Below the pieces are notes generated by a model. The model did not search any database and had not been told where the DNA came from. It saw nothing but the letters and a program-made list of their open reading frames with translations. A stretch of 64,000 nt of DNA. It comes from Eledone cirrhosa. Its lineage: Eukaryota. Below are positions 22,655 to 64,000 of this stretch, piece by piece (within the stretch, counting starts at the first letter, position 1; every line of letters starts with the position of its first letter). Location of the stretch: assembly GCA_964016885.1 (NCBI GenBank), contig OZ024757.1, forward strand, positions 8,184,001 to 8,248,000, read 5' to 3'. Position numbers and translations under genes: made by a program.

Positions 22655-22760
22655 AAAATCTTTACACGCACAAAACCCAGATCGTACCGTCCTGTACCGT
22701 CCTATGCCGTCGTCTGTAATGTTTTTCTTGATGTCAGCCCTTGTGGCCAACAAAGAAATC
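22655..22760 (+). mobile_element. Tx1 3' terminus
   Basis: gtaccgtcctgt...cccttgtggccaacaaagaaatc followed by (ATT)n; matches the 3' end of 51135-54142. Confidence 0.85.
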
Positions 22761-22782
22761 ATTATTATTATTATTATTATTA

Positions 22783-22832
22783 CAGTTGCATTTATCTTGC
22801 TTTATGTTCATACGAGTTATCACCAAGTCACA
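22783..22832 (-). mobile_element. Dong-B 3' tip only (50 nt) between (ATT)n tracts
   Basis: Identical to the 3' end at 27957. Confidence 0.9.
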
Positions 22833-22863
22833 ATTATTATTATTATTATTATTTTTTTTTTTT

Positions 22864-25800
22864 TTGAGTCTCAGTCATTGATGTTAGTTAACTGGAAAGT
22901 TTGTTGAAATGAATATCAAGCCACTACCTGCAGCCTCAGATATTCAGGACGTATCGGAGGGTTCTTGCTGTTCCCAGCAAGCATGCCTTTTGAAGCGTTC
23001 CAAAAAGCGTGAAGGGGCCGATTTTCTTTAACCATCCCTGGAAACTTTTGGAGATAGTCCCTAGTGCGCCTATGACAATCGGGATCACTTTGACTTCATG
23101 GCAGTTCCAAATCCTTTTTACCTCCCACTTTAGGTCCTGGTATCGGTTAATTTTCTCCCTCTCCTTCTCTTGCACTCTCGTGTCGAATGGGCAGGCCACA
23201 TCCACAATCAGACACGATCTTTTTTCTTTGTCCACAACCACCAGGTCAGGTCTATTGTGTTCCAGTTTCTTGTCCGTCTGTATCCTAAAATCCCACAGCA
23301 CCTTCACCTGATCGTTTTCTATCACCGACTCTGGCTTATGCTCATACCACTTCCCAGAATGTGGTAAGTTGTTTACTTTGCATAGGTGCCAGTGGATCAC
23401 CCTGCCCATCACATCATGTCTCCAGCCCTTATAGTGAGTCTGGGCTAGGTGTTTACATTCGGATACAATGTGAGCCACAGTCTCCTCTCTCTCTCCACAG
23501 ATCCTGCACAGTGGGCTAGCCTCCTCCTTGTAAATGTGGTGTTTCAACCACTTCGTTTTGAGGGCCTGCTCCTGCGCAGCCATTAACATTCCTTCTTTAG
23601 CCTTTTTAAGGTCTTCTCTTTTCAACCAGTTCCATGTCTGTGGATCTCTAAATTCAGTTTTCTCAAAGAAGGTACTATGAAGGGATTTTTCCTGAAGGCT
23701 GCTCTTTCTCCTTGATGTTATTTCCTCCTTGGACATACCCTGGCCTATTGTCCTCTCCTTCAGTACAGTTCTGAGCATTGGCTCCTTACTATCAGTCACG
23801 TATTTGTGTAGGTTGTTTTTCTCCATCTGAACACAGTCCTCTATGCTGACAAGACCTCTTCCACCCTCAGATCTCCTTAAGTAGAGTCTATCGACATCAC
23901 TCCTCTTGTGGAACATGTTGTAGATAGTCAATAGCTTCCTAGTCTTCCTATCCATTTCTTTTTGTTCAGCAACATTCCATCTCAGAATTCCCGCACTGTA
24001 CCTAATAATAGACACAGCTCGGGTATTTACTGCACTTATGGCATTCCTACTGTTCAGATGTGACTTTAATACGCTCCTTACTCTCCGAAGGTATTCACTT
24101 CTTATCAATTCCTTCATTTTTTTTGTTCTTGATGTCATCAGCCTCCAGAACGCCCAAATACTTGTATCCTTCCTCAGAGTCAATTTCCTTTATCAACTCA
24201 CCTGTTGGTATCTGGATTCCGTTACTTCTGCTCAACTTACTCCTCCTCATCACAATGACTCCACACTTACTAATACCAAATTGCATACATATGTCATTGC
24301 TGAAAATACGGACAGTGTCAACAAGCACATCCAACTCCTTCTCACTCTTCCCGAAGAGCTTAAGATCGTCCATGAAGAGGAGGTGATTGATGGTAAGCCC
24401 TCCCTTTTCCAACCTGTATCCTGCTCACACTTTTCGCAGTACACTGGTCAGGGGCATCAGGGCAAGGACAAACAACAGAGGGGAGAGACTATCTCCCTGG
24501 AAGATACCTCTCTTGATCTTCACGCTTCCCAAGGATTCTCCAGTTGATGTTAACTCTGTTTCCCAGGACTTCATACTTTTGCCCAACAACTGTCTGATGT
24601 TATCTGCCACCTTGAAGATCTCCAGGCTTTTGGTGATCCAAGAATGAGGCACCATGTCAAATGCCTTTTTGTAGTCTATCCATCCTATGGCAAGACCAGT
24701 GTGTCTTCTCTTGCAATTCCTCATTACCATCTTATCAATAAGTAACTGGTCCTTTGTACCACGTGACTTCTTTCGGCATCCTTTCTGTTCGTCCGGTAAC
24801 AAGTTGTTTGTGTGGACGTGATGGTAGATTTCCTCAGACATAATGCTTGTCAACAGTTTCCACATTACGGACAGACATGTGATAGATCTATAGTTGGTAA
24901 CATCATTACCCTTGATTCGGTCTTTCATTATCAGAACTGTGGTACCTTTTGTCAACCACTCTGGTATCTCACCTGACATCAAGCAGTCATTGAACATGGT
25001 TATCAGTTTCGGGTGGAGGGATGTTATGTTTTTAATCCAATACCCCTGCACACCTTCTGGGCCAGGTGATGTCCAGTTGGTTAGTTTTTTGGCCTGCCCC
25101 TTAATAGTTTCAACTGTGATACTCAAATCAGTTTGTTGGTGTGCCTGTTCACTGATCTCCTTCTGTACTGTCTCAATCCACACTGCCTGGTCATTATGTT
25201 TAACATCCTGCTCCCATATTCCTCTCCAGAATGTTTTAGTTTGTTCCGCCTCAGGGATCAAGTCGTTGCCTCTTTCTTTCCCTTCAAGCTGTCCAAACAG
25301 CATCTTCTGGTTGTTGTCGAACATGCGGTTCTCTCTATACTGGCTGACTCTTTTCTCGTATCGCCTGATTTTTGTACTCTTTGCTACAATGCGTTACTTC
25401 AGTTCTTCTATGATAATATTTAGCTTTTTCCTCCGAGTTTTTTACTTTATTTCCAGTCTATTTTTAGTATCTATGTTTTTTAGTGTCCCATTCAGTAGGG
25501 ACTCAAGCTTTTCAATGTCATTTCTCATTTCCCTGATTTGACCACTCAGTCGTTTCTTCCACCAAGGCTCTGCTCTTTCTTGTCTGTTGTTTCCTCTCGC
25601 TTTTATACCAAGTAGTTTCCTCACCGTATTTGCTGTTGCTTTGAGGATATTGTTGCACTGATGAAGGCTCCTCGCCTCAAGGTATGGGATGACTTTGTTT
25701 ACCTTAGCTGTTGTTTCTTTTAACTTTTTCCTGTCTACAAATCTTAGGTTCATAGGTCTCCCACTATCATTGTTCAATTCATCTACCACTAAGTTTAGGA

Positions 25801-27936
25801 TATCTACCAAATCTTGTCCTAGCCCGTCAGCATTCATCTCCTCAGTGGCCGTATCTCTGTTCCAGGTATTATTTATCTCAGCATTCAGATCATTGTCTGT
25901 TTCGGATGGTTCCTCCGTTCTCTCGACCTCCCCACCTTCATTTCCCACTGGCTCGCTTGCCTGGCATACTCCACCCTCCATCTCCAAGCTAATCTCTCTG
26001 CTCAGTTCTTCCAGTTCCAGCTCGCTTATCCACCCATTAGTTCTTATTACCCGAGCCTGCCCGGCCAGTTTTTGTTCATCTAATTTAAATGGACCAATCT
26101 CGTTCCAGATGTTATGCATCCTTTTCCTATAGCCTTTCTCCTTGGGGTTACTCTTCAGGTAACATTGCATAACAGTTCTATTCAATTCTTTCGTCCAGTT
26201 GGTTCTGGTCTCTTTCCTTCTTCTTCTTCCTCCGACACCAGCAGTATTTGGTTGACAGCCAGGTCCCTGCTGCTGAGCCAGGGAGCACCTGTTGGGTGAG
26301 AGTCTGTCACATGACATTCTAGTCTCCATTTCACCGTTATTCGAACTGTTTAGGTTCGACATTTAAACACTCTTATCGAGGATTGGCGAATGTATGCTTA
26401 CATAACCACCGGTGAATTACTTGTCTCCGGTGGTTTCGTCACTCCACGTGACTTTTGTGTGGCATTATCACGCTGTAGACGAACCCAAATAAACAAAGAA
26501 ACAGGCAGAAAAAAACCCCAAAATGAATAAGCATAAGTTTCATTGTAATGTAGTGTTTGAATGTCTGACTTAGTTTTTCCCTTCCCTTCTCTGTCCGTCC
26601 GTTTGTTTTTCTCTTCATTTTTATTTCCTTTACGTTTTTTGTTGTTGCTGTGCTGCTTTGATTTTGATTTTTTTTTTTTGATTTTGACCGGGTCATCAAT
26701 TCAGTCTATTTATATATTTTGATGCCTTCCTCTTTTAGTGAGAATTCTACAATGTAGCCGGGGCTATCGGGAGAGAATAGCGGCGGTAGTGACAATGAGG
26801 CAGCGGTAGCGGCGATTGCGGTGCTGTGCCAGCAGCAACCAGCAGGAGGTAGTGGGAGAGAATAGCGGCGGTAGCGCTAATGAGGCAGCGGCGGTGGCGA
26901 TGTGGTCGTATTATTGTAGCGATGGTGTTGAAGATGGAGTAGAAATTTGAGTCGACTTGACCAGGGTTTTCATCGTGGCAGTGGTGGTAGCACTGGTGGG
27001 GAAATTATCTTTAGTGAAATTATCATTAGTCGCGTATATGTGTTGACATAAATACCTTAATATTGGAATTAAACATTTTGTGAAAACTAAAACTTGATTT
27101 TGATTATTGTTTTTTTTTTTTTTGACCGGGTCATCAATTCAATCTATTTATATATTTTGGTGTTTTCCCCTTTTAGTGAGAATTCTACAATGTAGCAGGG
27201 GGTAGCGGGAGAGAATAGCGGCGGTAGTGATATTGAGGCAGCGGCGGCGGTGGTGGTGGCGGTGCTGTGCCAGCAGCAACTAGTAGAAGGTAGTGGGAGA
27301 GAGTAGCGGCGGTAGCGATAATGAGGCAGTGGTGGTGGTGATGATGTGGTCATATTACTGTAGTGATGGTGTTGAAGTTGGAGTAGAAATTTGAGTCGAC
27401 TTGACCAGAGTTGTCATCGTGGTAGTGGTGGTGGTATTGGTGGTGAAATTATCTTTAGTGAAATTATCGTTAGTTGCGTATATGTGTTGACATAAATACC
27501 TTAATATTGGAATTAAACATTTTGTTAAAACTAAAACTTGAGGCAATAGAAATAGTAATTATTATTATTATGCTGAGATTAGTGGTGGTGGTGGTAAAAT
27601 TGCCGTTATCTGGCTGTTGTGTTTAGTGTACACAGAGGGGTAATGGGGTAGGTGGTGTATCTAGTTTCTGATGTTGGTGAAATTGCTGGTATTTGGCTGT
27701 TCTATATAGTGTAGACAGAGGGGGTTTTCTTCCATTTGTAACCATTTTCTCTTTTGAATATAAAATGTATAATACAAAATTGAATATTTGAGCGATATAA
27801 CAATATATTGTGGATCCGAATTTTTTGGGACTCAAGCTGGATGTTTTATGCAACATTTGTACTAAGAATTGTTATTTCACAATTGATTTAAATATGTTAA
27901 AAAATCAAAACTTACGGGAGCGATTTCTCGACCTTC
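22864..27936 (-). mobile_element. R4/Dong-clade family A, full-length degenerate copy (ORF 22936-26362 broken by frameshifts/stops; ~430-bp duplication in leader)
   Basis: N-terminal WTKELN..MQCY..GYRKRM..EQKL; RT QGDSLSP/FMDDLKL; CCHC CRICGEREETVAHIVSEC; RHD, PDLVVVD, EK..RYQDL RLE motifs. Confidence 0.95.
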
Positions 27937-27956
27937 TATTATTATTATTATTATTA

Positions 27957-29896
27957 CAGTTGCATTTATCTTGCTTTATGTTCATACGAGTTATCACCAA
28001 GTCACAACCAGTGACCTCAAGAGACAACAAGCTCCGCCATGTTCAAGAAAGAACATACATACTCACACATGCATCTTTGGTGTTTAGACTTGTGATGTAC
28101 TTATATTGACAGAATCTTCCTTAGTATATGGGCAGTTCCCATTAGTACTCTCTTTTGTATTTCTCCTATACGCGGGTTTCCTGGGATTTGCGATAAGTAA
28201 TCATTAGACCCCTTAGGTATCATTCCCAGAGCGCCTACAACCACTGGTATTGTTTTAGTACTCAATTTCCACATTTTTCCAATTTCTATCTCCAGGTCCT
28301 TATACTTGCTAAATTTTTCAAATGTTTTTATAGATACATTCTTGTCTATTGGAACAGACATATCAATTAGCAGTCATACCCTCTTTTGAAAGTCCTTCAA
28401 TATTATATCAGGTCTATTTGCATCTATTTTTCGGTCTGTTTGGATGCTAAAGTTCCACAAGATTGAGATGTGATCTTTTTCAAGTATGGGAGGTGGTTGA
28501 TGCTCCCACCAATTCTTTTGATGGGGCAGGTCAAAATGCTTACACATTATCCAATGTATGTATTGTGCAGCTCTGTCATGCCTGTTTAGGTATTCGGTTG
28601 GAGCTATAGGACTGCACATTGAAATTATATGGTCAATGCTCTCTGGTTGTTTTTTGCATACAGGGCATAATGGGCTGCACCCATTTTTTATTATGTTGGC
28701 TTGGTAATTTTTTGTTGGCAGACACTGATCTTGTGCTGATATAATCAGTCCTTCAGTCTCCGATTTCAGTCCAGAGGATGCCAACCACTGATGGGTTAAA
28801 GTTTTGTCAACATCAGGATTGTTAGCTCGCTCTGGGTATTTTCCATATAGAGGCTTTTCTTGCCATTTCTTAGCCAGTTTCTGTAGCAGTTCTTTCTTTG
28901 CAGTTACTTTTACCTGTTTTGCTTTTTCTGTGTTTTCCATTTCAGCAGTAAATGGGACTTCTGAAATTTGTAGTCCATTACTGTATCTTTGTGCATCTTT
29001 TGTAATGGAATATGATCTTTTGATGCTTTCGTGTTTCAAAACGAGTTTGATCATCCAATCATGTGATTCCCTTAGATATGTAGATAATCCAATTGTTGCA
29101 GTTTTCAACGCAATGTCTAACTGGATTAACCCACGTCCTCCTTCTTTCCTAGGGAGATATATTCTATCTATATCTGCCTTAGGGTGATGCATTCTGTGCA
29201 TGGTTAAGAATTTTCGAATTTTTGTATCGAGCCTACGGATCTCTGTGCTTGACCAGTTGATGACATTGTAACTGTAGGTTTCTACTGGTATGGCAAGCGT
29301 GTTTATGGCATCGATCCTATTCCTTGCATTCAATTCCGTTCTTAAGATTGCTCTGACTCTGCGGTAACATTCCTTCCTTATCCTTTCCCTCATTGTAGAG
29401 TGCTTGATTCCGTCTCCTTCACAAACACCTAGATATTTGTAAGTTTTTTCTTGATCAAGTTCTCTTATCACGTTCCCCCGATCAAGATTAATGTCTGAAC
29501 TCTTCAGCAGCTTTCCTCTGGTGAACGTTGCTTTGGCGCATTTATCTAGTCCAAACTCCATTTTAATGTCATCACTGAACTGCTCCACAGTGGATAATAG
29601 ACCTTGCAATTGTTCATCATTTATTGCAAATAGTTTCAGGTCATCCATGTAGAACAGGTAATTAATGGTTTTGTCATAGACTTTATATCCATGTTTTGTT
29701 TCATTGAGCATTTTACTTAATGGTATATGTGCGATGCAGAATAAAAGCGGTGATAAAGAGTCACCCTGAAAAATTCCACAATTAATATTAACCTCTCCAG
29801 CTTCCAGTGATTTTGTTTCACTATTCAAAAGGAGTGTCGTTTTCCATGTTTTCATACTGAATGACAAAAACCTCCTGACAACGGGGGATATTTTGA

Positions 29897-29897
<1 letters not shown>
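27957..29897 (-). mobile_element. R4/Dong-clade family B, 5'-truncated
   Basis: QGDSLSP, YMDDLKL, CPVC..HIISMC, RHD, PDIILKD. Confidence 0.95.
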
Positions 29898-29941
<44 letters not shown>

Positions 29942-29950
29942 GTTGTTGTT

Positions 29951-31312
29951 ATTCCTTGAATCTCAGTCATTGATGTTGGTTAACTGGAAAGTCCGTTGGA
30001 ATGAATATCAAGCCACTACCTGCAGCCTCAGATATTCAGGACGTATCGGAGGGTTCTTGCTGTTCCCAGCAAGCATGCCTTTTGAAGCGTTCCAAAAAGC
30101 GTGAAGGGGCCGATTTTCTTTAACCATCCCTGGAAACTTTTGGAGATAGTCCCTAGTGCGCCTATGACAATCGGGATCACTTTGACTTCATGGCAGTTCC
30201 AAATCCTTTTTACCTCCCACTTTAGGTCCTGGTATCGGTTAATTTTCTCCCTCTCCTTCTCTTGCACTCTCGTGTCGAATGGGCAGGCCACATCCACAAT
30301 CAGACACGATCTTTTTTCTTTGTCCACAACCACCAGGTCAGGTCTATTGTGTTCCAGTTTCTTGTCCGTCTGTATCCTAAAATCCCACAGCACCTTCACC
30401 TGATCGTTCTCCGTCACCGCCTCTGGCCTATGCTCATACCATTTCTCAGAATGTGGTAAATTGTTTACTTTGCACAGGTGCCAGTGGATCACCCTGCCCA
30501 TCACATCATGTCTCCAGCCCTTATAGTGGGTCTGGGCTAGGTGTTTACACTCGGATACAATGTGAGCCACAGTCTCCTCTCTCTCTCCATAGATCCTGCA
30601 GAGTGTGCTAGCCTCCTCCTTGTAAACATGGTGCTTCAACCACTTCGTTTTGAGGGCCTGCTCCTGCGCAGCCATTAGCATTCATTCTGTAGCCTTTTTG
30701 AGGTCTCCTCTTCTCAACCAGTTCCATGTCTGTGGATCTGTAAATTCAGTTTTCTCAAAGGAAGGTACTATGAAGGGATTTTCCCTGAAGGCTGCTTTTT
30801 CTCCTTGATGTTATTTCCTCCTTGGACATCCCCTGGCCTACTGTCCCCTCCTTCAGTACAGTTCTGAGCATTGGCTCCTTACTATCAGTCACGTATTTGT
30901 ATAGGTTGTTTTTCTCCATCTGAACACTGTCCTCTATGCTGATAAGACCTCTTCCACCCTCAGATCTCCTTAGGTAGAGTCTATCGACATCACTCCTCTT
31001 GTGGAACATGTTGTAGATAGTCAATAGCTTCCTAGTCTTCCTATCCATTTCTTTTTGTTCAGCAACATTCCATCTCAGAATTCCCGCACTGTACCTAATA
31101 ATAGACACAGCTCGGGAATTTACTGCGCTTATGGCATTTCTGCTGTTCAGATGTGACTTCAATACGCTCCTTATTCTCCGAATGTATTCAGTTCTTAACA
31201 ATTCCTTCATTTTTTTGTTCTTTATGCCATCAGCCTCCAGAACTCCCAAATACTTGTATCCTTCCTCAGAGTCAATTTCCTTTATCATTTCACCTGTTGG
31301 TATCTGGATTCC
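29951..31312 (-). mobile_element. Dong-A, 5'-truncated
   Basis: ORFs 30028-30681 and 30755-31288 (thumb, CCHC, RLE). Confidence 0.95.
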
Positions 31313-31342
31313 ATTATTATTATTATTATTATTATTATTGTT

Positions 31343-34300
31343 ATTCCTTGAATCTCAGTCATTGATGTTGGTGAACTGGAAAGTCCGTTGGATTGAATAT
31401 CAAGCCACTACCTGCAGCCTCAGATATTCAGGACGTATCGGAGGGTTCTTGCCGTTCCAAGCAAGCATGCCTTTTGAAGCGTTCCAAAAAGCGTGAAGGG
31501 GCCGATTTTCTTTAACCATCCCTGGAAACCTTTGGAGATAGTCCCCAATGCGCCTATGACAATCGGGATCACTTTGACTTCATGGCAGTTCCAAATCCTT
31601 TTCACCTCCCACTTTAGGTCCTGGTATCGGTTAATTTTCTCCCTCTCCTTCTCTTGCACTCTCGTGTCGAACGGGCAGGCCACATCCACAATCAGGCACG
31701 ATCTTTTTTCTTTGTCCACAACCACCAGGTCAGGCCTATTGTGTTCCAGTTTTTTGTCCGTCTGTATCCTAAAATCCCACAGCACCTTCACCTGACTGTT
31801 CTCCATCACCGCCTCTGGCCTATGCTCATACCATTTCTCAGAATGTGGTAGATTGTTTACTTTGCACAGGTGCCAGTGGATCACCCTGCCCATCACATCG
31901 TGTCTCCAGCCCTTATAGTGGGTCTGGGCTAGGTGTTTACACTCGGACACAATGTGAGCCACAGTCTCCTCTCTCTCTCCACAGATCCTGCACAGTGGGC
32001 TAGCCTCCTCCTTGTAGATATGGTGCTTCAACCACTTCGCTTTGAGGGCCTGCTCCTGCGCAGCCATTAGCATTCCTTCTGTAGCCTTTTTGAGGTCTCC
32101 TCTTCTCAACCAGTTCCATGTCTGTGGATCTCTAAATTCAGTTTTCTCAAAGAAGGTACTATGAAGGGATTTTCCCTTAAGGCTGCTCTTCCTCCTTGAT
32201 GTTATTTCCTCCTTGGATATCCCCTGGCCTACTGTCCCCTCCTTCAGTACAGCTCTGAGCATTGGCTCCTTACTATAGGTCACGTATTTGTATAGGTTGT
32301 TTTTCTCCATCTGAACACAGTCCTCTATGCTGATAAGACCTCTTCCACCCTCAGATCTCCTTAGGTAGAGTCTATCGACATCACTCCTCTTGTGGAACAT
32401 GTTGTAGATAGTCAATAGCTTCCTAGTCTTCCTATCCATTTCTTTTTGTTCAGCAACATTCCATCTCAGAATTCCCGCACTGTACCTAATAATAGACACA
32501 GCTCGGGAATTTACTGCGCTTATGGCATTTCTGCTGTTCAGATGTGACTTCAATACGCTCCTTACTCTCCGAATGTATTCAGTTCTTAACAATTCCTTCA
32601 TTTTTTTGTTCTTTATGCCATCAGCCTCCAGAACGCCCAAATACTTGTATCCCTCCTCAGAGTCAATTTCCTTTATCATCTCACCTGTTGGTATCTGGAT
32701 CCCGTTACTTCTGCTCAACCTACCCCTCCTCATCACAATGACTCCACATTTACCAATACCAAACTGCATACATATATCACTGCTGAAAATACGGACAGTG
32801 TCAACAAGCACATCCAACTCCTTCTCACTTTTCCCGAAGAGCTTAAGATCGTCCATGAAGAGGAGGTGATTGATGGTAAGCTCTCCCCTTCCCAACTTGT
32901 ATCCTGCTCTCACTTTTCGCAGCATAATGGTCAAGGGCATCAGGGCAAGGACAAACAACAGAGGGGACAGGCTATCTCCCTGGAAGATACCTCTCTTGAT
33001 CTTCACGCTTCCCAAGGATACTCCAGTTGATGTCAACTCTGTCTCCCAGGACCCCATACTCCTGCCCAGCAACTGTCTGATGTTATCTGCCACCCTGAAG
33101 ATCTCCAGGCTTTTGGTGATCCAGGAATGAGGCACCATGTCAAATGCCTTTCTGTAGTCTATCCATCCCATGGCAAGATCAGTGTGTCTCCTCCTGCAAT
33201 TCCCCATTACCATCTTATCAATAAGCAACTGGTCCTTTGTACCACGTGACTTCTTTCGGCATCCTTTCTGTTCGTCCGGCAACAAGTTGTTTGTGTGGAG
33301 GTGATGGTAGATTTCCTCAGACACAATGCTCGTCAACAGTTTCCACATTACGGGCAGACATGTGATAGGTCTATAGTTGGTAACATCATTACCCTTGATT
33401 CGGTCTTTCATTATCAGAACTGTGGTACCTTTTGTCAACCACTCTGGCACCTCACCCGACACCAAGCAGTCATTGAACATGGCCGTCAGCTTCGGGTGGA
33501 GGGATGTTAAATGTTTAATCCAATACCCCTGCACACCATCTGGGCCTGGTGATTTCCAGTTGGTTAGTTTTTTGGCTTGCCCCTTAAGAGTTTCAACTGT
33601 GATACTCAAATCAGTCTGTTGCTGTGTCTGTTCACCGATCTCCCTCTGTACTGTCTCAATCCACCCTGCCTGGGCATTGTGTCTAACATCCTGCTCCCAT
33701 ATTCCTCTCCAGAATGTTTTAGCTTGTTCCGCCCCAGGGATCAAGTCGTTGCCTCTTTCTTTCCCCTCAAGCTGTCCAAACAGCATCTTCTGGTTGTTGT
33801 CGAACATGCGGTTCTGTTTATACTGACTGACTCTGTTCTCGTATCGCCTGATTTTGGCACTCTTTGCTACAATGCGTTGCTTCAATTCCTCTATGATAAT
33901 ATTTAGCTTTTTACTCCTAGTTTTGTATTTTATTTCCAGTCTATTTTTAGTGCCTATGTTTTTTAGTGTCCCATTCAGTAGTGACTCAAGCTTTCCTATG
34001 TCATTTCTCATTTCCTCGATTTGCCCACTCAGTCGCTTCTTCCACCACGGCTCTGCTCTTTCTTGTCTGTTGTTTCCTCTCGCTTTTATACCAAGTAGTT
34101 TCCTCACCGTATTTGCTGTTGCTTTGAGGATATTGTTGCACTGGTGAAGACTCCTCGCCTCAAGGTATGGGATGACTTTGTTTACCTTAGCTGTTGTTTC
34201 TTTTAACTTTTTCCTGTCTACAAATCTTAGGTTCATAGGTCTCCCACTATCATTGTTCAACTCATCTACCACTAAATTTAGGATGTCAACCGAATCTTGT

Positions 34301-35870: not shown

Positions 35871-35877
35871 CTTATTC

Positions 35878-35919
<42 letters not shown>

Positions 35920-35920
<1 letters not shown>

Positions 35921-39875: not shown

Positions 39876-39909
<34 letters not shown>

Positions 39910-40745: not shown

Positions 40746-40765
40746 TCTTATTGTTCTTTCTTCTT

Positions 40766-40825
<60 letters not shown>

Positions 40826-40834
40826 GTTATTGTT

Positions 40835-45130: not shown

Positions 45131-45134
<4 letters not shown>
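42574..45134 (-). mobile_element. Dong-A, 5'-truncated, intact 821-aa frame (42651-45116)
   Basis: Complete RT+CCHC+RLE without disruption. Confidence 0.96.
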
Positions 45135-45191
<57 letters not shown>

Positions 45192-45399
45192 GGCGACCTA
45201 CGTAGTAAATCGTATCATCGTGAGCTCCGCAAAGGTTTGTTATTTCCGTTTGTTAAAAATTGTCATTTATGGAAATTTTTCATTGTTAACTGTTTATAAG
45301 CGCACATACATTGTTTTCCGAAAAGGACACCCAAAAAGATTGGGGCCTTGTGCCCAAAATTTAAACTTTTATTATTATCAAAAAATTTCTTTGAAAAAA

Positions 45400-47390: not shown

Positions 47391-47424
47391 GTGGTCTTTC
47401 CCATCTTTTCCACTCCTTTTCAAC

Positions 47425-50837: not shown

Positions 50838-51077
50838 TTGCATTTATCTTGCTTTATGTTTATACGAGTTATCACCAAGTCACAACCAGTGACCTCAAGA
50901 GACAACAAGGTCCGCCATGTTCAAGAAAGAACATACATATTCACACATGCATCCTTAGTGTTTAGACTTGTGATGTACTTATATTGACAGGATCTTCCTT
51001 AATATATGGGCAGTTCCCATTAGTACTATCTTTTGTATTTCTCCTATACGCGGGTTTCCTGGGATTTGCGATAAGTA

Positions 51078-51079
<2 letters not shown>
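50838..51079 (-). mobile_element. Dong-B short 3' fragment
   Basis: 3'UTR and ORF end between (ATT)n tracts. Confidence 0.93.
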
Positions 51080-54100: not shown

Positions 54101-54142
54101 AATGTCTACTTTATGTAAAACCTTGTGGTTAATAAAGAAATC
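51135..54142 (+). mobile_element. Tx1-clade LINE with both ends but internal deletions (non-autonomous)
   Basis: Short degenerate ORF1 (51350-52051); ORF2 jumps from NIDVVA to REPG; C-terminal CPRCAQGDETVLHALVQCP; 3' end aataaagaaatc. Confidence 0.93.
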
Positions 54143-54168
54143 ATTAGTATTATTATTATTATTGTTTT

Positions 54169-57100
54169 TATTCCTTGAATCTCAGTTGGTTAACTGGAAA
54201 GTCCGTTGGAATGAATATCAAGCCACTACCTGCAGCCTCAGATATTCAGGACGTATCGGAGGGTTCTTGCTGTTCCCAGCAAGCATGCCTCTTGAAGCGT
54301 TCCAAAAAGCGTGAAGGGGCCGATTTTCTTTAACCATCCCTGGAAACTTTTGGAGATAGTCCCTAGTGCGCCTATGACAATCGGGATCACTTTGACTTCA
54401 TGGCAGTTCCAAATCCTTTTCACCTCCCACTTTAGGTCCTGGTATCGGTTAATTTTCTCCTTCTCCTTCTCTTGCACTCTCGTGTCGAATGGGCAGGCCA
54501 CATCCACAATCAGACACGATCTTTTTTCTTTGTCCACAACCACCAGGTCAGGTCTATTGTGTTCCAGTTTCTTGTCCGTCTGTATCCTAAAATCCCACAG
54601 CACCTTCACCTGATCGTTCTCCGTCACCGCCTCTGGCCTATGCTCATACCATTTCTCAGAATGTGGTAAATTGTTCACTTTGCACATGTGCCAGTGGATC
54701 ACCCTGCCCATCACATCGTGTCTCCAGCCCTTATAGTGTGTCTGGGATAGGTGTTTACACTCGGATACAATGTGAGCCACAGTCTCCTCTCTCTCTCCAC
54801 AGATCCTGCACAGTGGGCTAGCCTCCTCCTTCTAAATGTGGTGTTTCAACCACTTCGTTTTGTGGGCCTGCTCCTGCGCAGCCATTAACATTCCTTCTAT
54901 AGCCTTTTTAAGGTCTCCTCTTTTCAACCAGTTCCACGTCTGTGGATCTCTAAATTCATTTTTCTCAAAGAAGGTATTATGAAGGATTTTTCCTGAAAGC
55001 TGCTCTTTCTCCTTGATGTTTTTTCCTCCTTGGACATCCCCTGGCCTATTGTCCCCTCCTTCAGTACAGTTCTGAGCATTGGCTCCTTACTATCAGTCAC
55101 GTATTTGTGTAGGTTGTTTTTCTCCATCTGAACACAGTCCTCTATGCTGATAAGACCTCTTCCACCCTCAGATCTCCTTAAGTAGAGTCTATCGACATCA
55201 CTCCTCTTGTGGAACATGTTGTAGATAGTCAATAGCTTCCTAGTCTTCCTATCCATTTCTTTTTGTTCAGCAACATTCCATCTCAGAATTCCCGCACTGT
55301 ACCTAATAATAGACACAGCTCGGGAATTTACTGCGCTTATGGCATTTCTGCTGTTCAGATGTGACTTCAATACGCTCCTTACTCTCCGAATGTATTCAGT
55401 TCTTAACAATTCCTTCATTTTTTTGTTCTTTATGCCATCAGCCTCCAGAACTCCCAAATACTTGTATCCTTCCTCAGAGTCAATTTCCTTTATCATCTCA
55501 CCTGTTGGTATCTGGATTCCGTTACTTCTGCTCAACCTACCCCTCCTCATCACAATGACTCCACATTTACCAACACTAAACTGCATACATATATCACTGC
55601 TGAAAATACGGACAGTGTCAACAAGCACATCCAACTCCTTCTCACTCTTCCCGAAGAGCTTAAGATCGTCCATGAAGAGGAGGTGATTGATGGTAAGCTC
55701 TCCCTTTCCCAACTTGTATCCTGCTCTCACTTTTCGCAGCACAATGGTCAAGGGCATCAGGGCAAGGACACACAACAGAGGGGACAGGCTATCTCCCTGG
55801 AAGATACCTCTCTTGATCTTCACGCTTCCCAAGGATTCTCCAGTTGATGTCAACTCTGTCTCCCAGGACCCCATACTCCTGCCCAGCAACTGTCTGATGT
55901 TATCTGCCACCTTGAAGATCTCCAGGCTTTTGGTGATCCAAGAATGAGACACCATGTCAAATGCCCTTCTGTAGTCTATCCATCCCATGGCAAGATCAGT
56001 GTGTCTCCTGCAATTCCCCATTACCATCTTATCAATAAGTAACTGGTCCTTTGTACCACGTGACTTCTTTTGGCATCCTTTCTGTTCGTCCGGTAACAAG
56101 TTGTTTGTGTGGAGGTGATGGTAGATTTCCTCAGACACAATGCTCGTCAACAGTTTCCACACTACGGACAGACATGTGATAGGTCTATAGTTGGTAACAT
56201 CATTACCCTTGATTCGGTCTTTCATTATCAAAACTGTGGTACCTTTTGTCAACCACTCTGGCACCTCACCCGACACCAAGCAGTCATTGAACATGGCCGT
56301 CAGCTTCGGGTGGAGGGATGTTAAATGTTTAATCCAATACCCCTGCACACCATCTGGGCCTGGTGATTTCCAGTTGGTTAGTTTTTTGGCCTGCCCCTTA
56401 AGAGTTTCAACTGTGATACTCAAATCAGTTTGTTGGTGTGCCTGTTCACCGATCTCCCTCTGTACTGTCTCAATCCACCCTGCCTGGTCATTATGTCTAA
56501 CATCCTGCTCCCATATTCCTCTCCAGAATGTTTTAGTTTGTTCCGCCCCAGGGATCAAGTCGTTGCCTCTTTCTTTCCCCTCAAGCTGTCCAAACAGCAT
56601 CTTCTGGTTGTTGTCGAACATGCGGTTCTGTTTATACTGACTGACTCTGTTCTCGTATCGCCTGATTTTTGCAGTCTCGGCTACAATGCGTTGCTTCAGT
56701 TCCTCTATGATAATATTTAGCTTTTTCCACCTAGATTTGTACTTTATTTCAAGTCTATTTTTAGTGCCTATGTTTTTTAGTGTCCCATTCAGTAGTGACT
56801 CAAGCTTTCCTATGTCATTCCTCATTTCCTTGATTTGACCACTCAGTCGTTTCTTCCACCAAGGCTCTGCTCTTTCTTGTCTGTTGTTTCCTCTCGCTTT
56901 TATACCAAGTAGTTTCCTCACCGTATTTGCTGTTGCTTTGAGGATATTGTTGCACTGGTGAAGGCTCCTCGCCTCAAGGTATGGGATGACTTTGTTTACC
57001 TTAGCTGTTGTTTCATTTAACTTTTTCCTGTCTACAAATCTTAGGTTCATAGGTCTCCCACTATCAATGTTCAATTCATCTACCACTAAATTTAGGATGT

Positions 57101-58585
57101 CAACCGAATCTTGTCTTAGCCCGTCAGCATTCATCTCCTCAGTGGCCGTATCTCTGTTCCAGGTATTATTTATCTCAGCATTCAGATCATTGTCTGCTTC
57201 GGGTGGTTCCTCCGTTCCCTCAACCTCTTCACCTTCATTTCCCTCTGGCTCGTTTGTCTGGCATATTACACCCTCCATCTCCAAGCTAATCTCTCTGCTC
57301 AGTTCCTCCAGTTCCAGCTCGCTTATCCACCCATTAGTTCTTATTACCCGAGCCTGCCCGGCCAATTTTTGTTCATCTAATGTAAATAGACCAATCTCGT
57401 TCCAGATGTTATGCATCCGTCTCCTATAGCCCCTCTCCTTGGGGTTACTTTTCAGGTAACATTGCATAACAGTTCTATTCAATTATTTCGTCAAGTTGGT
57501 TCTGGCCCCTTTCCTTCTTCGTCTTCCTCCACCGTCAGCAGTATCTGGTTGACAGTCAGGTTCCTGCTGCTGAGCCAGGGGGCACCTGTTGGGTGAGAGT
57601 CTGTCACATGACGTTCTAGTCTCCATTTCACCGTTATTCGAACTGTTTAGGTTCGATATTTAAACACTCTTATCGAGGATCGGCGAATGTATGGTTACTT
57701 AGCCATCTGTGGATTCACCGCCGCCGGTGTTTGCGCCGCTCCAATTGGCGCTTGTGTGGCATTATCACCACGCTGTAGACGAACACAAATAAACAAACAA
57801 ACACACAGGCAGAAAAGACCCCAAAAATGAATAAGCATAAGTTTCATTGTAATGTAGTGTTCGAATGTCTGACTTAGTTTCCCCCCCCCCCCCTCTTCTC
57901 TGTCCGTCCGCTTGTTCCTCTCTTCATTCTTATTTTCTTTACGTTTTTTTTTTTTTTTTTTCTCTGTTTGCTTTTGCTGTGCTGCTTTGGTTTTGTTGTT
58001 TGTTTTTTCTTTTTTCTTTTGAGTCTATTTATATATTTTGATGCCTTCCTCTTTTTTAGTAGTAGGGATTCTATAATGTGGTGGCAGCAGCCAGCTGAGA
58101 GATGTGGTTGACAGTAGCGGCGGTAGCGATACTGAGACAGTGGTGGTGGTGATGTCGATACCGAGGCAGTGTTGGTGGTGATGTGATCGTATTACTGTAG
58201 TGATGGTGTTGTAGCGGTGGCAGCAATGAAGGAGTGGTGGCGGCGGTGATGGGATAGTTGTGGTAATGATGGCAGCAGTGAGTGATGGTGGTGAAATTGA
58301 AATGGCTGTTCTATATAGTGTAGACAGAGGAGGGGGGGGGGTCTTCTTCCATTTATAGCCATTTTCTTTTTTGGATATACAATGTACAATACAAAGTTGA
58401 ATATTTGAATATTTGAGCCTTATAACAATATATTTTGGGTCCGAATTTTTGGGGGCTCAAGCCGGATGCTTTACGTAGCATTTGTACTAAGAGTTGTTAT
58501 TTCACAAATGATTTAAATATGTTAAAAATTCAAAACTTACGGGAGCGATTTCATGACCTTCCACCACCTCGTGCGTCTTCTTCCC
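54169..58585 (-). mobile_element. Dong-A, full-length copy with frameshift/stops
   Basis: ORFs 54924-57482 and 54238-54780; leader matches copy 31343. Confidence 0.95.
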
Positions 58586-58601
58586 TTATTATTATTATTA
58601 T

Positions 58602-61252
58602 TTGCATTTATCTTGCTTTATGTTTATACGAGTTATCACCAAGTCACAACCAGTGACCTCAAGAGACAACAAGGTCCGCCATGTTCAAGAAAGAACACAC
58701 ATATTCACACATGCATCCTTAGTGTTTAGACTTGTGATGTACTTATATTGACAGGATCTTCCTTAGTATATGGGCAGTTCCCATTAGTACTATCTTTTGT
58801 ATTTCTCCTATACGCGGGTTTCCTGGGATTTGCGATAAGTAGTCGTTAGACCCCTTAGGTATCATTCCCAGAGCGCCTACAACCACTGGTATTGTTTTAG
58901 TTCTCAATTTCCACATTTTTCCAATTTCTATCTCCAGGTCCTTATACTTGCTCAATTTTTCAAATGTTTTTATAGATACATTCTTGTCTATTGGAACAGA
59001 CATATCAATTAGCAGGCATACCCTCCTTTGAAAGTCCTTCAATATTATATCAGGTCTATTTGCATCTATTTTTCGGTCTGTTTGGATGCTAAAGTTCCAC
59101 AAGATTGAGATGTGATCTTTTTCAAGTATGGGAGGTGGTTGATGCTCCCACCAATTCTTTTGATGGGGCAGGTCAAAATGCTTACACATTATCCAATGTA
59201 TGTATTGTGCAGCTCTGTCATGCCTGTTTAGGTATTCGGTTGGAGCTATAGGACTGCACATTGAAATTATATGGTCAATGGTCTCTGGTTGTTTTTTGCA
59301 TACACGGCATAATGGGCTGCACCCATTTTTTATTATGTTGGCTTGGTAATTTTTTGTTGGCAGACACTGATCTTGTGCGGAGATAATCAGTCCTTCAGTC
59401 TCCGATTTCAGTCCAGAGGATGCCAACCACTGATGGGTTAAAGTTTTGTCAACATCAGGATTGTTAGCTCGCTCTGGGTATTTTCCATACAGAGGCTTTT
59501 CTTGCCATTTCTTAGCCAGTTTCTGTAGCAGTTCTTTCTTTGCAGTTACTTTTACCTGCTTTGCTTTTTCTGTGTTTTCCATTTCAGCAGTAAATGGGAC
59601 TTCTGAAATTTGTAGTCCATTTCTGTATCTTTGTGCATCTTTTGTAATGGAATATGATCTTTTGGTGCTTTCGTGTTTCAAAACGAGTTTGATCATCCAA
59701 TCATGTGATTCCCTTAGATATGTGGATAATCCAATTGTTGCAGTTTTCAACGCAATGTCTAACTGGATTAACCCACGTCCTCCTTCTTTCCTAGGGAGAT
59801 ATATTCTATCTATGTCTGCCTTAGGGTGATGCATTCTGTGCATGGTTTAGAATTTTCGGATTTTTGTATCGAGCCTACGGATGTCTGTGCTTGACCAGTT
59901 GATGACATTGTAACTGTAGGTTACTACTGGTATGGCAAGCGTGTTTATGGCATCGATCCTATTCCTTGCATTCAATTCCGTTCTTAAGATTGCTCTGACT
60001 CTGCGGTAACATTCCTTCCTTATCCTTTCCCTCATTGTCGAGTGCTTGATTCCGTCTCCTTCACAAACACCTAGATATTTGTAAGTTTGTTCTTGATCAA
60101 GCTCTCTTATCACGTTCCCCCGATCAAGATTAATGTCTGAACTCTTCAGCAGCTTTCCTCTGGTGAACGTTGCTTTGGCGCATTTATCCAGTCCAAACTC
60201 CATTTTAATGTCATCACTGAACTGCTTCACAGTGGATAATAGCCCTTGCAATTGTTCATCATTTTTTGCGAATAGTTTCAGGTCATCCATGTAGAACAGG
60301 TGATTAATGGTTTTGTCATAGACTCTATATCCATGTTTTGTTTCATTGAGCATTTTACTTAATGGTATAAGTGCGATGCAGAATAAAAGCGGTGATAAAG
60401 AGTCACCCTGAAAAATTCCACAATTAATGTTAACTTCTCCAGCTTCCAGTGATTTTGTTTCACTATTCAAAAGGAGTGTCGTTCTCCATGTCCTCATACT
60501 GAATGACAAAAACCTCCTGACAACGGGGGATATTTTGAAAATCTCTAAACATTTTTCAATCCAACTGTGTGGCAAACTATCAAATGCTTTTTTATAATCT
60601 ATCCAAGCAATCGATAGATTTTTGTGTCTATTATGACAATCTTCCAGTATCATTTTGTTAACCAGAAGCTGATCCTTACAGCCATATGAGCCTCGTTTAC
60701 ACCCTTTCTGCTCAATGGGAAATAGGTCATTTGTTATCAGGTGGTCATATGTGTATTCAGTTAGGACTGATGTTAAAATTTTATACATTGTGGTCAAGCA
60801 GGTTATCGGTCTGTAATTTTTGGGATTGTTTGTCTCATCATTCTTCGGTAGCAGGAATGTAATGCCGTTAACTAGCCATGATGGTATCTTTTCTGGCTCC
60901 TTAACTATTTCATTGTAAAGTTGGGCCAACAGCTCATGAGACTCTGTGAAGGCATTTATCCAAAAGTTTTGTATTTTGTCTTTTCCTGGGGATTTCCATT
61001 TGCTGGTTTTTCTTAGAGCCAAGCGCAGCTGTTCAACTGTTATATTTTCCCATGTTTGTTCTTCAAGGTGAGCTGTTTCTTTCATTTGTCTGTCTATCCA
61101 TGGGGCATGTATGTTATGAACTTTTTCTTCGGCCCAGATCTTTTCCCAGAATTCTTGCACTTCCTCCTTGGGTGGTATTGATTTAGCAGTTATTGTTGAC
61201 TTACCAATTTTTCTGTAGAAGTTTCTTTGGTTGTTTTTGAACATATTATTGT
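58602..61252 (-). mobile_element. Dong-B, 5'-truncated; ORF 58743-61244 with one in-frame stop (59847-59849)
   Basis: RT YMDD, CCHC CRVC..HIISMC, RLE. Confidence 0.95.
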
Positions 61253-61260
61253 TATTAACA

Positions 61261-61293
<33 letters not shown>

Positions 61294-61574
61294 GGCGGTG
61301 GATTGGCATTATCGGTAGAGGGTCGGACGCTATGCTTTGAGGTATAGAGTTACGGCCATTGCCATTCTGAGTTCCAATCCCGCCGAGGTTAACTTTGCCT
61401 TTCATCCTTACGGGGTCGATAAAATAAAGTACCAGTAATACACTGGGTAATTTTTGGCCTTGTGCCTAATTTATCCCGCCGAGGTTAACTTTGCCTTTCA
61501 ACCTTCCAGGGTCGATAGAATAAAGTACCAGTAATGCATTGATAGTTGCTGGCCTTGTGCCAAAAGTAGAAACC
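61294..61574 (+). mobile_element. tRNA-SINE plus second partial SINE within an (ATT)n linker
   Basis: ggcggtggattggcattatcggtagag, gagttccaatcc; 3' half repeated. Confidence 0.92.
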
Positions 61575-61593
61575 ATTATTATTATTATTATTA

Positions 61594-64000
61594 CAGTTGC
61601 ATTTATCTTGCTTTATGTTCATACGAGTTATCACCAAGTCACAACCAGTGACCTCAAGAGACAACAAGGTCCGCCATGTTCAAGAAAGAACATACATATT
61701 CACACATGCATCTTTAGTGTTTAGACTTGTGATGTACTTATATTGACAGAATCTTCCTTAGTATATGGGCAGTTTCCATTAGTACAATCTTTTGTATTTC
61801 TCCTATACGCGGGTTTCCTGGGATTTGCGATAAGTAATCATTAGACCCCTTAGGTATCATTCCCAGAGCGCCAACAACCACAGGTATTGGTTTAGTTCTC
61901 AATTTCCACATTTTTCCAATTTCTATCTCCAGGTCCTTATACTTGCTCAATTTTTCAAATGTTTTTATAGAAACATTCTTGTCTATTGGAACAGACATAT
62001 CAATTAGCAGGCATACCCTCCTTTGAAATTCCTTCAATATTATATCAGGTCTATTTGCATCTATTTTTCGGTCTGTTTGGATGCTAAAGTTCCACAAGAT
62101 TGAGATGTGATCTTTTTCAAGTATGGGAGGTGGTTGATGCTCCCACCAATTCTTTTGATGGGGCAGGTCAAAATGCTTACACATTATCCAATGTATGTAT
62201 TGTGCAGCTCTGTCATGCCTCATTAGGTATTCGGTTGGAGCTATAGGACTGCACATTGAAATTATATGGTCAATGGTCTCTGGTTGTTTTTTGCATACAC
62301 GGCATAATGGGCTGCATCCATTTTTTATTATGTTGGCTTGGTAATTTTTTGTTGGCATACACTGATCTTGTGCTGATATAATTAGTCTCCGATTTCAGTC
62401 CAGAGGATGCCAACCACTGATGAGTTAAAATTTTGTCAACATCAGGATTGTTAGCTCGCTCTGGGTATTTTCCAAACAGAGGCTTTTCTTGCCATTTCTT
62501 AGCCAGTTTCTGTAGCAGTTCTTTCTTTGCAGTTACTTTTACCTGCTTTGCTTTTTCTGTGTTTTCCATTTCAGCAGTAAATGGGACTTCTGAAATTTGT
62601 AGTTCATTATTGTATCTTTGTGCATCTTTTGTAATGAGAATATGATCTTGTGATGCTTTCGTGTTTCAAAACGAGTTTGATCATCCAATCATGTGATTCC
62701 CTTAGATATGTAGATAATCCAATTGTTGCAGTTTTCAACGCACTGTCTAACTGGATTAACCCACGTCCTCCTTTCCTGGGGAGATATATTCTATCTATAT
62801 CTGCCTTAGGGTGATGCATCCTGTGCATGGTTAAGAATTTTCGAATTTTTGTATCGAGCCTACGGATCTCTGTGTTTGACCAGTTGATGACATTGTAACT
62901 GTAGGTTACTACTGGTATGGCAAGCGTGCTTATGGCATCGATCCTATTCCTTGCATTCAATTCCGTTCTTAAGATTGCTCTTACTCTGAGGTAACATTCC
63001 TTCCTTATCCTTTCCCTCATTGTCGAGTGCTTGATTCCGTCTCCTTCACAAACACCTAGATATTTGTAAGTTTTTTCTTGATCAAGTTCTCTTATCACGT
63101 TCCCCCGATCAAGATTAATGTCTGAACTCTTCAGCAGCTTTCCTCTGGTGAACGTTGCATTGGCGCATTTATCTAGTCCAAAGTCCATTTTAATGTCATC
63201 ACTGAACTGCCCCACAGTGGATAATAGCCCTTGCAATTGTTCATCATTTTTTGCAAATAGTTTCAGGTCATCCATGTAGAACAAGTGATTAATGGTTTTG
63301 TCATAGACTTTATATCCATGTTTTGTTTCATTGAGCATTTTACTTAATGGTATAAGTGCGATGCAGAATAAAAGCGGTGATAAAGAGTCACCCTGAAAAA
63401 TTCCACAATTAATATTAACTTCTCCAGCTTCCAGTGATTTTGTTTCACTATTCAAAAAGAGTGTCGTTTTCCATGTCTTCATACTGAATGACAAAAACCT
63501 CCTGACAACGGGAAATATTTTGAAAAGCTCTAAACATTTTTCAATCCAACTGTGTGGCAAACTATCGAATGCTTTTTTATAATCTATCCAAGCAATCGAT
63601 AGATTTTTTTGTCTATTAGGACAATCTTCCAGTATCATTTTGTTAACCAGAAGCTGATCCTTACAGCCATATGAGCCTCGTTTACACCCTTTCTGCTCAA
63701 TGGGAAATAGGTCATTTGTTATCAGGTGGTCATATGTGTATTCAGTTAGGACTGATTTTAAAATTTTATACATTGTGGTCAAGCAAGTTATCGGTCTGTA
63801 ATTTTGGGGATTGTTTGTCTCATCATTCTTCGGAAGCAGGAATGTAATGCCGTTAACTAGCCATCATGGTATCTTTTCTGGCTCCTTAACTATTTTGTTG
63901 TAAAGTTGGGCTAACAGCTCATGAGACTCTGTGAAGGCATTTATCCAAAAGTTTTGTATTTTGTCTTTTCCTGGGGATTTCCATTTGCTGGTTTTTCTTA
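61594..64000 (-). mobile_element. Dong-B copy running off the window end
   Basis: ORFs 61738-62358 and 62607-63782. Confidence 0.95.

Follow-up and report, generated by a model that had tools for sequence, protein, structure and literature searches.

Positions 22655 to 64000 of the window, the stretch of 64,000 nucleotides of Eledone cirrhosa DNA analysed here, belong to a train of retroelements joined by (ATT)n tracts. We consider it very likely that this train is a long example of a type of chain found throughout the genome. In such chains, Dong-like and Tx1-like elements occupy one microsatellite in opposite orientations; the chains probably grow by TPRT that leaves tracts on both flanks and are probably also enlarged and cut back by recombination. 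The 5' ends of both element classes lie on (ATT)n, their polarity is fixed, tracts occur in filled and in empty states, and the elements cluster throughout the genome.

Composition of the train

The part of the train in the window has 17 units, i.e. six of RLE family A, seven of RLE family B, three Tx1-like and one SINE dimer. The 15 (ATT)n linkers (15-60 bp pure, plus strand) are at 22761, 22833, 27937, 29897, 31313, 35878, 40794, 42548, 45131, 50819, 51079, 54148, 58586, 61261 and 61575, so that 15 of 16 internal junctions carry a tract. Every A and B is on the minus strand, every Tx1-like element and SINE on the plus strand, and in no case is a LINE interrupted by another LINE and then resumed. 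These counts by family, the junctions and the opposite polarity agree with the first-pass annotation.

The left edge is without a tract and consists of a 3' fragment of an older Tx1-like subfamily (22655..22760, 78-83% to other Tx1 3' ends), with (ATT)7 behind it. Next come the 3' 51 bp of a B element (22783..22832), the full-length A1 (22864..27934), which is the oldest A copy (92%) and has a 444-bp duplication in its 5' UTR, and two 5'-truncated copies, B2886 (27957..29897) and A3171 (29954..31313). The young full-length A2 (31346..35877) is followed by the full-length Bf1 (35920..40745), the start of whose 5' UTR is 67% like that of A, and by the 5'-truncated young insertions A2829 (40838..42547) and A1975 (42577..45131), the latter with 4 nt of microhomology to the tract. 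A Tx1a-type APE LINE (45192..49822) has its complete 5' end on (ATT)20 and its 3' end deleted. It meets a B fragment (49825..50819) at the only tract-free internal junction, 49822/49825, where Tx1a lacks its 3' ~1.17 kb and B its 3' ~120 bp, and which looks like a deletion. The 3' 245 bp of another B (50838..51079) precede a Tx1b-type APE LINE (51135..54143), which differs in its 5' UTR/ORF1 region and retains both ends in spite of two internal deletions. The full-length A3 (54173..58585), the 5'-truncated B2173 (58602..61260), the SINE dimer of one full copy and a 3' half (61294..61574) and the full-length Bf2 (61594..64000 in the window, ending at extended position 66429) complete the series. 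Past the window follow Tx1a, Tx1b, A and a deleted A-type copy, up to extended position 83714 (C18:8,267,714), 19.7 kb beyond the window. The whole train has 21 units in 61,060 bp, of which families and tracts cover 59,903 bp. In a background sample of 600 kb from 15 arbitrary places, A accounted for only 130 bp and B for 56 bp, which confirms that the element density at the train is far above chance.

Two descriptions in the first-pass annotation were too strong. Its term intact-frame does not fit, as none of the ten long units checked has a full-length frame and the longest open stretch in an A copy has 1025 aa against 1100-1220 aa in 72 full-length relatives. Nor is a mutually non-destructive arrangement supported: the present train has two units with internal deletions and a junction formed by deletion, and in related trains three SINEs have inserted within LINEs. 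The setting is interstitial, 8.2 Mb into a 43.9-Mb contig. ARAGORN detected no tRNA, and a Pfam scan, run on the Tx1 ORF1 and on 20 open frames to the left of the train, gave no host gene; its matches were an RT fragment from an old Tx1 copy and a single one below threshold.

Assignment of the element families

The 1025-aa stretch of A2 contains an RT and an endonuclease module with CCHC at 836, RHD at 865 and PD..D at 922. B, about 40% identical to A in protein, has an RT and C-terminal CCHC and RHD, its frame stopping ahead of the second D. This combination of RT, CCHC, RHD and PD..D without APE is the architecture of R4/Dong. In the PDB, A matches R2 proteins best, and the alignment includes the PD..D region. 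All 72 full-length relatives of A have the CCHC, RHD and PD..D motifs and none has an N-terminal C2H2 zinc finger, the lack of which separates R4 from R2, NeSL and Utopia. Among the 120 relatives listed there is no named R4/Dong reference (118 unnamed, two "hypothetical protein"). Bombyx Dong carries a 5' HDV-like ribozyme, which is not known to be universal in R4/Dong. For the present elements, an Rfam scan of 34400-40900 gave no ribozyme and three matches at chance level, and our own HDV-like descriptor, run without a positive control, gave no match.

The Tx1-like elements have a CCHC knuckle in ORF1, and an ORF2 with APE, RT and C-terminal zf-RVT and with the motifs GDWN, SYLD, TDH and YADD, which is the Tx1 architecture. 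The best PDB match of ORF2 is human L1 ORF2, indicating an affinity to the L1 group. No named Tx1 element occurs among the 58 protein matches, and the label, taken from the first-pass annotation and from the architecture, is a putative one. The names Dong and Tx1, set from architecture and target rather than from a tree against named references, appear to fit.

Target sequence and polarity in the genome

The genome contains at least 25,000 3' ends of LINE copies, including at least 10,424 of A and at least 4,709 of B. Sense-strand (TAA)n was found at the 3' ends of B in 21/21 and of A in 28/29 copies, and 104 of 142 alignment ends of 5'-truncated A/B adjoin a tract (38 are without one). For the Tx1-like elements, (ATT)n was present at all complete 5' ends outside the duplication (Tx1a 26/26, Tx1b 25/25; 51/51 together), a count which refers to full-length young copies. 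It could be supposed that only the Dong-like elements are target-specific and that the (ATT)n of Tx1-like elements is no more than a terminal tail which Dong later uses, as is the behaviour of the SINE with its tail and relaxed site, and (ATT)n is indeed present at 25/25 sampled Tx1 3' ends. However, a tail cannot account for a 5' tract, and the Tx1 5' tracts thus speak for target specificity. Some of these 5' ends have no Dong-like neighbour, while many others are head-to-head with A or B. The tail as origin of the tracts is therefore rejected for full-length young Tx1a and Tx1b, and we give this explanation practically no credence. The preference for a target sequence is as in the Tx1 clade, and a target shared as (ATT)n/(TAA)n by two endonuclease classes of opposite polarity, as first annotated, is supported.

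A family member lay within 160 bp of 96 of the 126 sampled element ends, and the polarity was the expected one in 91 of these 96. The five exceptions are a 5' inversion inside an A (L074), a true head-on junction (L194), one weak 32-bp match and two SINEs 85-133 bp away. On C1 (1-43.7 Mb), 168 of 228 element ends were less than 7 kb from another, against a chance mean of 16 and maximum of 40 in 5000 draws; 40 of 62 clusters mixed both classes. Two further trains on C1, of 12 and 10 LINE units (43 and 40 kb), have the same grammar, which is also found at unrelated loci on many chromosomes.

Regional bias, in the form of chromatin, local re-insertion or survival in low-cost regions, could be the main cause of the clustering, with target regeneration secondary. 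In line with this, the two young A insertions of the window diverge by 0.4-0.5% from the neighbouring A2, with which they form a group, and the two large C1 trains are only 27 kb apart and of the same polarity. The window train also exceeds the geometric expectation, as the fit predicts 0.006 to 1 train of at least 20 units genome-wide, where clusters and fit use coordinates of exact-match 3' ends and units are undercounted. The train being in the far tail of this fit, recombination, older age or local bias is needed in addition. Against regional bias, other chromosomes carry A 3' ends that are almost identical (L172 and L173, 99-100%), cluster sizes on C1 are near geometric at 12.5 kb linkage, and the train flanks are free of young LINEs. 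Moreover, regional bias alone would lead us to expect neither end-to-end contact nor the same polarity in 101 of 106 neighbours on C1. As the main cause we regard it as improbable, and prefer insertion into a target that is regenerated.

In the tract search, which used anchored patterns, 35 of the long tracts (n=60) were occupied and 20 empty, while 3/44 short tracts were occupied; this does not tell attraction of insertions by length from length made by insertion. The empty (ATT)16 of the window (2318..2365, plus strand), which merges into (ACT)n outside the train, had been taken as a hint that context beyond sequence matters. Since empty long tracts are common (20/60), this one is unremarkable; special context is not needed to explain it and was rejected.

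Segmental duplication and filled and empty sites

The entire train is inside a segmental duplication, of which seven copies were found with a flank divergence of 0.2-1.2%. The tract region 58586-61293 is empty in R1, R2 and R5, while it holds B2173 in the window, another A in R4 and another B in R6, and all three insertions have tract on both sides. The same tract being empty in three copies and filled with three different LINEs in three others supports target regeneration, and with it the earlier claim that target is left on both sides and is entered repeatedly and independently. In single cases, what looks like an empty site could also result from the precise loss of a unit through recombination between tracts. 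A2829 and A1975 are missing in R1 and R2. At a dispersed repeat elsewhere, the (ATT)10 is empty in five copies and filled in the sixth, where an A is flanked on either side by tract.

The first-pass annotation preferred serial insertion to segmental duplication, which is not supported as stated. Apart from the sevenfold duplication of the locus, the B2886 and A3171 pair is present twice in R1 and R2, the B of the extra pair being a crossover hybrid, and R1, R2 and R3 contain mosaic B and A copies, which point to unequal crossing-over and to deletions within the train. Repeated junctions are also found at L021/L022 and on C1. All this would favour the view that most of the train came from a few units duplicated in tandem or segmentally; as for an assembly artefact, the public contigs of four runs are too fragmented in repeats to bridge the junctions and are uninformative. 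Yet truncation point, subfamily and divergence (92-100%) vary from unit to unit, the units show no periodicity, and duplication can neither yield three different elements in one tract nor account for the same grammar at unrelated loci. Pure duplication as main cause is largely refuted, and duplication or artefact as the principal origin seems to us very improbable.

The SINE

The SINE and Tx1 3' ends share a stem of 3-4 bp and a CUUGU loop followed by ATT repeats. Stem pairs 1-3 are kept in 93-100% of 109 Tx1 and 94-98% of 176 SINE ends with differing letters, these ends having been chosen on the loop and including repeats of one locus. Such a 3' tail in common with a partner LINE is as expected of a Tx1-dependent SINE, and the element is likely mobilised by a Tx1-type protein via this hairpin. 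Contrary to the proposal, the SINE appears not to be confined to tracts: judged by eye, only one of 24 unrelated copies has a pure tract at its 5' end, and 14 of the 24 show a direct repeat of 10-20 nt, 12 of them beginning ATTA. A tract-specific SINE is rejected on this count; the SINE also interrupts LINEs. By taking a shorter ATTA site, the SINE may seed trains as well as interrupt LINEs.

Proposed mechanism

According to the standard TPRT model, the RLE protein would nick the T-rich strand and prime on RNA ending in (UAA)n, while the APE protein would nick the A-rich strand and prime on RNA ending in (AUU)n. We infer this strand choice from the orientation of the elements; in the model, opposite nicked strands and RNA ends fix the polarity. 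The 5' end would be joined via short microhomology to the tract, and microhomology of at least 3 nt was present at 12 of 33 junctions, where 7.7% would be expected (P = 3e-6). Each insertion would turn one target into two, so that growth would be about proportional to the number of tracts, as in a birth process. That no LINE is nested in another would follow from the near absence of target in LINE bodies. Recombination between similar copies would both enlarge and trim the chains.

A more far-reaching reading, which we regard as rather unlikely, is that of a community feeding itself genome-wide, where RLE, APE and SINE elements would generate most of the long (ATT)n tracts and afterwards use them up. 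As the clades face opposite ways, read-through from one is antisense to the other, and the trains may on this basis act as small-RNA traps that assemble themselves and let either clade silence the other, as well as substrates that drive rearrangement of the local segmental duplication.

Comparison with known systems

Dong of the R4 clade (Bombyx Dong, DongAg, DongBg) is described as a single-ORF RLE LINE which inserts in (TAA)n so that its sense strand carries the TAA (PMC3812793, PMC3774820, PMC3636483), and Dong-R4 is reported as abundant and recently active in Octopus vulgaris (PMC13282606). A and B resemble Dong as described there in being single-ORF RLE-type elements in (TAA)n with sense-strand TAA, but are two families and mostly in mixed chains. 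Microsatellite-specific Tx1 elements include Kibi on (TC)n, Koshi on (TTC)n, crocodilian elements on (TTCC)n/(TTTC)n and Tx1-1_ACar on a telomeric repeat, as far as the cited parts go (PMC4494074, PMC10088271). As in those accounts, the present elements have two ORFs, APE and RT, L1-group affinity and a strict repeat target, whereas they use (ATT)n, in common with an RLE clade. In the papers searched, Repbase entries aside, we came across neither a Tx1-like family specific for (ATT)n nor mixed RLE/APE trains.

TRAS and SART, as the source portrays them, are two families that occupy Bombyx telomeric repeats in opposite orientations and form arrays (PMC10088271), a likeness that is shared by the trains. 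However, both are R1-clade APE elements in a telomerase-made repeat at chromosome ends, whereas RLE and L1-group APE elements here occupy interstitial tracts of a trinucleotide renewed by insertions. The train works like TRAS/SART but is not a member of that group. Keno (APE) and Utopia (RLE) likewise bring both lineages to one target, converging on U2 snRNA genes with occasional tandem insertion (PMC4640811); there the target is a gene, both have the same 3' flank (same polarity), and the passages cited describe no long mixed chains. The crocodilian SINEU-3 is, in the portion cited, likely mobilised by Tx1-Mar, with the same target preference and sequential tandem insertions (PMC4494074). It resembles the present SINE in having a putative Tx1 partner, but its target is a Mariner element, and the present SINE is far looser in site than its putative partner.

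The single ingredients, i.e. Dong on TAA, microsatellite-specific Tx1 and TRAS/SART, are known, and the surprise is moderate. Target-site regeneration on a dispersed microsatellite can nevertheless order tens of thousands of LINEs into polarised multi-clade chains away from telomeres. RLE and APE endonucleases are here given one substrate, which they are predicted to read on opposite strands, and in the seven duplicated copies growth and loss can be followed as a natural time series. Most long (ATT)n tracts of this genome are junctions between retroelements, a point of practical weight for microsatellite markers, repeat annotation and assembly.

Results

Within the window (C18:8,184,001-8,248,000) the train consists of 17 units, namely six A and seven B (two Dong-like RLE LINE families), three Tx1-like APE LINEs and one SINE dimer (61294..61574). 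The first-pass annotation had given the same number and composition, which self-comparison, tract listing and natural-copy annotation together returned, and its statement that every junction except one is (ATT)n was likewise recovered, with a plus-strand tract at 15 of 16. At the tract-less junction (49822/49825) a Tx1a copy without its 3' end meets a B copy without its 3' end, the pattern expected of a deletion that spanned a tail-to-tail junction. To the right of the window the train adds a Tx1a, a Tx1b, an A and an A-type copy with an internal deletion, up to position 83714 in extended window numbering, and the complete train comprises 21 units in 61,060 bp (98% covered). This density is not chance, since 600 kb taken from 15 arbitrary places in the 3.0 Gb assembly yielded just 130 bp from family A and 56 bp from family B. 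An old Tx1-like copy (14236-about 16000, minus strand, 75-79%), whose degenerate tail carries a SINE, lies outside the train and has the opposite polarity.

Both A and B encode RT and C-terminal CCHC and RHD motifs, with about 40% protein identity; A additionally has PD..D, and its best structure matches are to the retroelement R2. The Tx1-like elements have an ORF1 with a CCHC knuckle and an ORF2 with APE and RT, for which human L1 ORF2 is the best match and an Argonauta protein (55%) the only named animal match. The Dong and Tx1 labels should be read as putative, as they are based on architecture and target rather than on a phylogeny that includes named references. A full-length frame was found in none of the ten long train units checked. 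Tx1a (45192-46905) and Tx1b (51135-52050) differ in the 5' UTR and ORF1 regions while ORF2 is about 95% alike, and a third, older Tx1 type (77-81%) also lies between tracts in copy R5 of the locus and on contig C1. The B 5' UTR (39874-40745) includes a region 67% like that of A and a piece of SINE 3' end that it has captured (39932-40022). It also contains a 32-nt run of A, at which two unrelated B copies (L079, L173) start.

Five genome-wide searches gave 150 loci, of which 126 remained after removal of 24 in duplicated copies of the locus; as best-scoring copies these are young. (ATT)n adjoins 125 of the 126 element ends. At 3' ends it may be the element's own tail; this is no explanation at 5' ends, and since a tract adjoins 51/51 Tx1 5' ends outside the duplicated copies (Tx1a 26/26, Tx1b 25/25), the Tx1-like families are specific for (ATT)n in their own right. 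For 5'-truncated A and B a tract stands beside 104 of 142 alignment ends, the other 38 being unclassified and including internal breaks. Microhomology of at least 3 nt with the tract was present at 12 of the 33 junctions resolvable without extra bases, against 7.7% expected; 11 more carry additional or altered bases. At 96 of the 126 ends the next 160 bp contain a family member (52 A/B, 19 Tx1, 25 SINE), with the expected polarity in 91. Of the five departures, one is a 5' inversion, one a head-on junction and one a weak match of 32 bp, and two are SINEs set some way off.

L074 is an A copy whose 5' part is inverted, and L194 is a rare head-on junction at which, with an A copy on either side, (AAT)n runs up against (ATT)n. 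At A/B 5' ends (TTC)n runs often merge into the (ATT)n tract (window 40745-40793; L087, L089, L090, L182, L186), and these may arise by expansion of the bases with which the element begins. Identical or near-identical 5' truncation points recur at unrelated loci (L005/L028, L059 and window 51079, L100/L345, L178/L200), so that a shared truncation point alone is no proof of duplication.

The SINE is not tract-specific: by eye, outside the duplication, a pure tract stood at the 5' end of only 1 of 24 copies, and the SINE interrupts LINEs (B in copy R4, A in copy R5 with opposite polarity, Tx1a on C1). Among the copies outside the duplication, 14 of 24 are flanked by a 10-20-nt direct repeat, beginning ATTA in 12. 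SINE and Tx1 both terminate 3' in a CUUGU loop closed by a short stem, which is preserved in SINE, young Tx1 and old Tx1 although its letters differ among them; this suggests that a Tx1-type protein mobilises the SINE in a SINE-LINE partnership. Hairpins of this type, with compensatory stem changes, occur at 61440-61574, 54110-54143 and 22735-22760. The SINE is the neighbour, in expected polarity, at 23 of the 126 LINE ends, and its tails supply seeds.

Two anchored patterns, covering two of the three registers, gave 16,442 and 7,247 tracts of at least 30 bp. Among the first 30 per pattern on C1, scored by eye, 35 of the 60 adjoin a LINE of these families, 5 a SINE alone and 20 are empty, every adjoining element having the expected polarity. 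The isolated empty tract at 2318, earlier taken to mean that context beyond sequence may matter, is thus ordinary and provides no evidence of such context. Among the 44 tracts of the 15-place sample, most of them short, 3 adjoin a LINE; length may either draw insertion or stem from it. Eleven of the empty C1 tracts lie inside two dispersed repeats (copies L313, L314, L322, L323, L328, L318 and L315, L316, L320, L329). Each repeat contains a tract of (ATT)10 or more, and its dispersal thereby delivers new targets. One of the two repeats has a copy filled by A with tract on both sides (L317/L318), and at L091 the flank of that repeat precedes Tx1b.

The train and its flanks are present in seven copies on C18, in both orientations: the window, R1 (7.64 Mb), R2 (8.89), R3 (5.23), R4 (9.38), R5 (9.83) and R6 (7.09). 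This segmental duplication (about 5.2-9.9 Mb; L035-L050, L291-L310) has seven or more copies of at least 80 kb, and Pfam found no host gene in the left 22 kb of the window. Flank divergence is 0.2% for R1 and R2, 0.2-0.7% for R3 and about 1.2% for R4 and R5; R6 was matched by its units alone, and most copies were compared over part of their length. One pair may be an uncollapsed haplotype, which is impossible for all seven, as they are differently built. Between A3 (54173..58585) and the SINE dimer, R1, R2 and R5 have a bare tract. At this place the window has B2173 (58602..61260), R4 an A of 142 bp and R6 a B of 474 bp, with tract on both sides each time. R1 and R2 also have nothing in the tract ahead of Tx1a, where the window carries two young A copies. 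In these differing fillings growth by insertion is recorded directly.

Recombination acts as well. An additional B+A pair is present in R1 and R2, and its B matches Bf1 (35920..40745) over its 3' 1.6 kb and B2886 (27957..29897) over the remainder, the mark of unequal crossover. R3 is short; three window copies contribute to its mosaic B and two to its A, consistent with a deletion caused by ectopic recombination. Tract-less junctions in R5, R6 and on C1 look like deletions. No LINE resuming after another LINE was seen in eight large regions.

Exact-pattern matches gave, as lower bounds, at least 10,424 A, 4,709 B and 9,913 young Tx1 3' ends. In the first 43.7 Mb of C1, complete in all three lists, 168 of 228 ends have a further end no more than 7 kb away, whereas 5000 random draws gave a mean of 16 and a maximum of 40. 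Polarity agrees in 101 of 106 adjacent pairs, and both classes occur together in 40 of 62 clusters. Cluster sizes at 12.5 kb linkage (36, 13, 11, 15, 6, 1, 3, 2) are near geometric with q 0.62, and at 7 kb the fit is rougher (q 0.46); extrapolation gives 0.006 to 1 trains of 20 or more units, which places the window locus in the far tail. The densest C1 cluster, picked for its density, contains two trains that follow the same grammar, one of 12 LINE units (about 43 kb) and one of 10 (about 40 kb).

Discussion

Insertion of Dong into TAA and of Kibi/Koshi into TC/TTC is established (PMC3812793, PMC4494074, PMC3636483), and recent activity in Octopus vulgaris (PMC13282606) and expansion in coleoids (PMC8967140) are reported for Dong-R4 and L1-Tx1. 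Together with the Argonauta match, these reports make an octopod host likely. TRAS/SART form arrays in opposite orientations (PMC10088271), and Keno/Utopia illustrate how APE and RLE elements have converged on a common target (PMC4640811). A ribozyme is present at the 5' end of Bombyx Dong (PMC3774820), whereas none was found here with an Rfam scan and our own HDV descriptor, the latter run without positive control. A full-text literature search, extending to few subscription papers, returned no description of mixed RLE/APE microsatellite trains nor, Repbase being outside it, of an (ATT)n-specific Tx1 family, which may be listed in Repbase or in the supplements or target-list figure of PMC4494074.

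The target is shared, polarity is fixed and tract flanks new copies on both sides; one tract is used repeatedly, clustering is genome-wide and some copies are mosaic. On the established model of target-primed reverse transcription (TPRT), nicking would fall on the T-rich strand for the RLE protein and on the A-rich strand for the APE protein; one target would become two with every insertion, and LINE bodies, which lack the target, would be spared. Insertion into a shared target, target renewal and recombination together very probably account for the trains. Overall, the phenomenon is real, genome-wide and mechanistically well supported. Trains are the normal state of the A, B and Tx1-like families, and that of the window is large, not unique.
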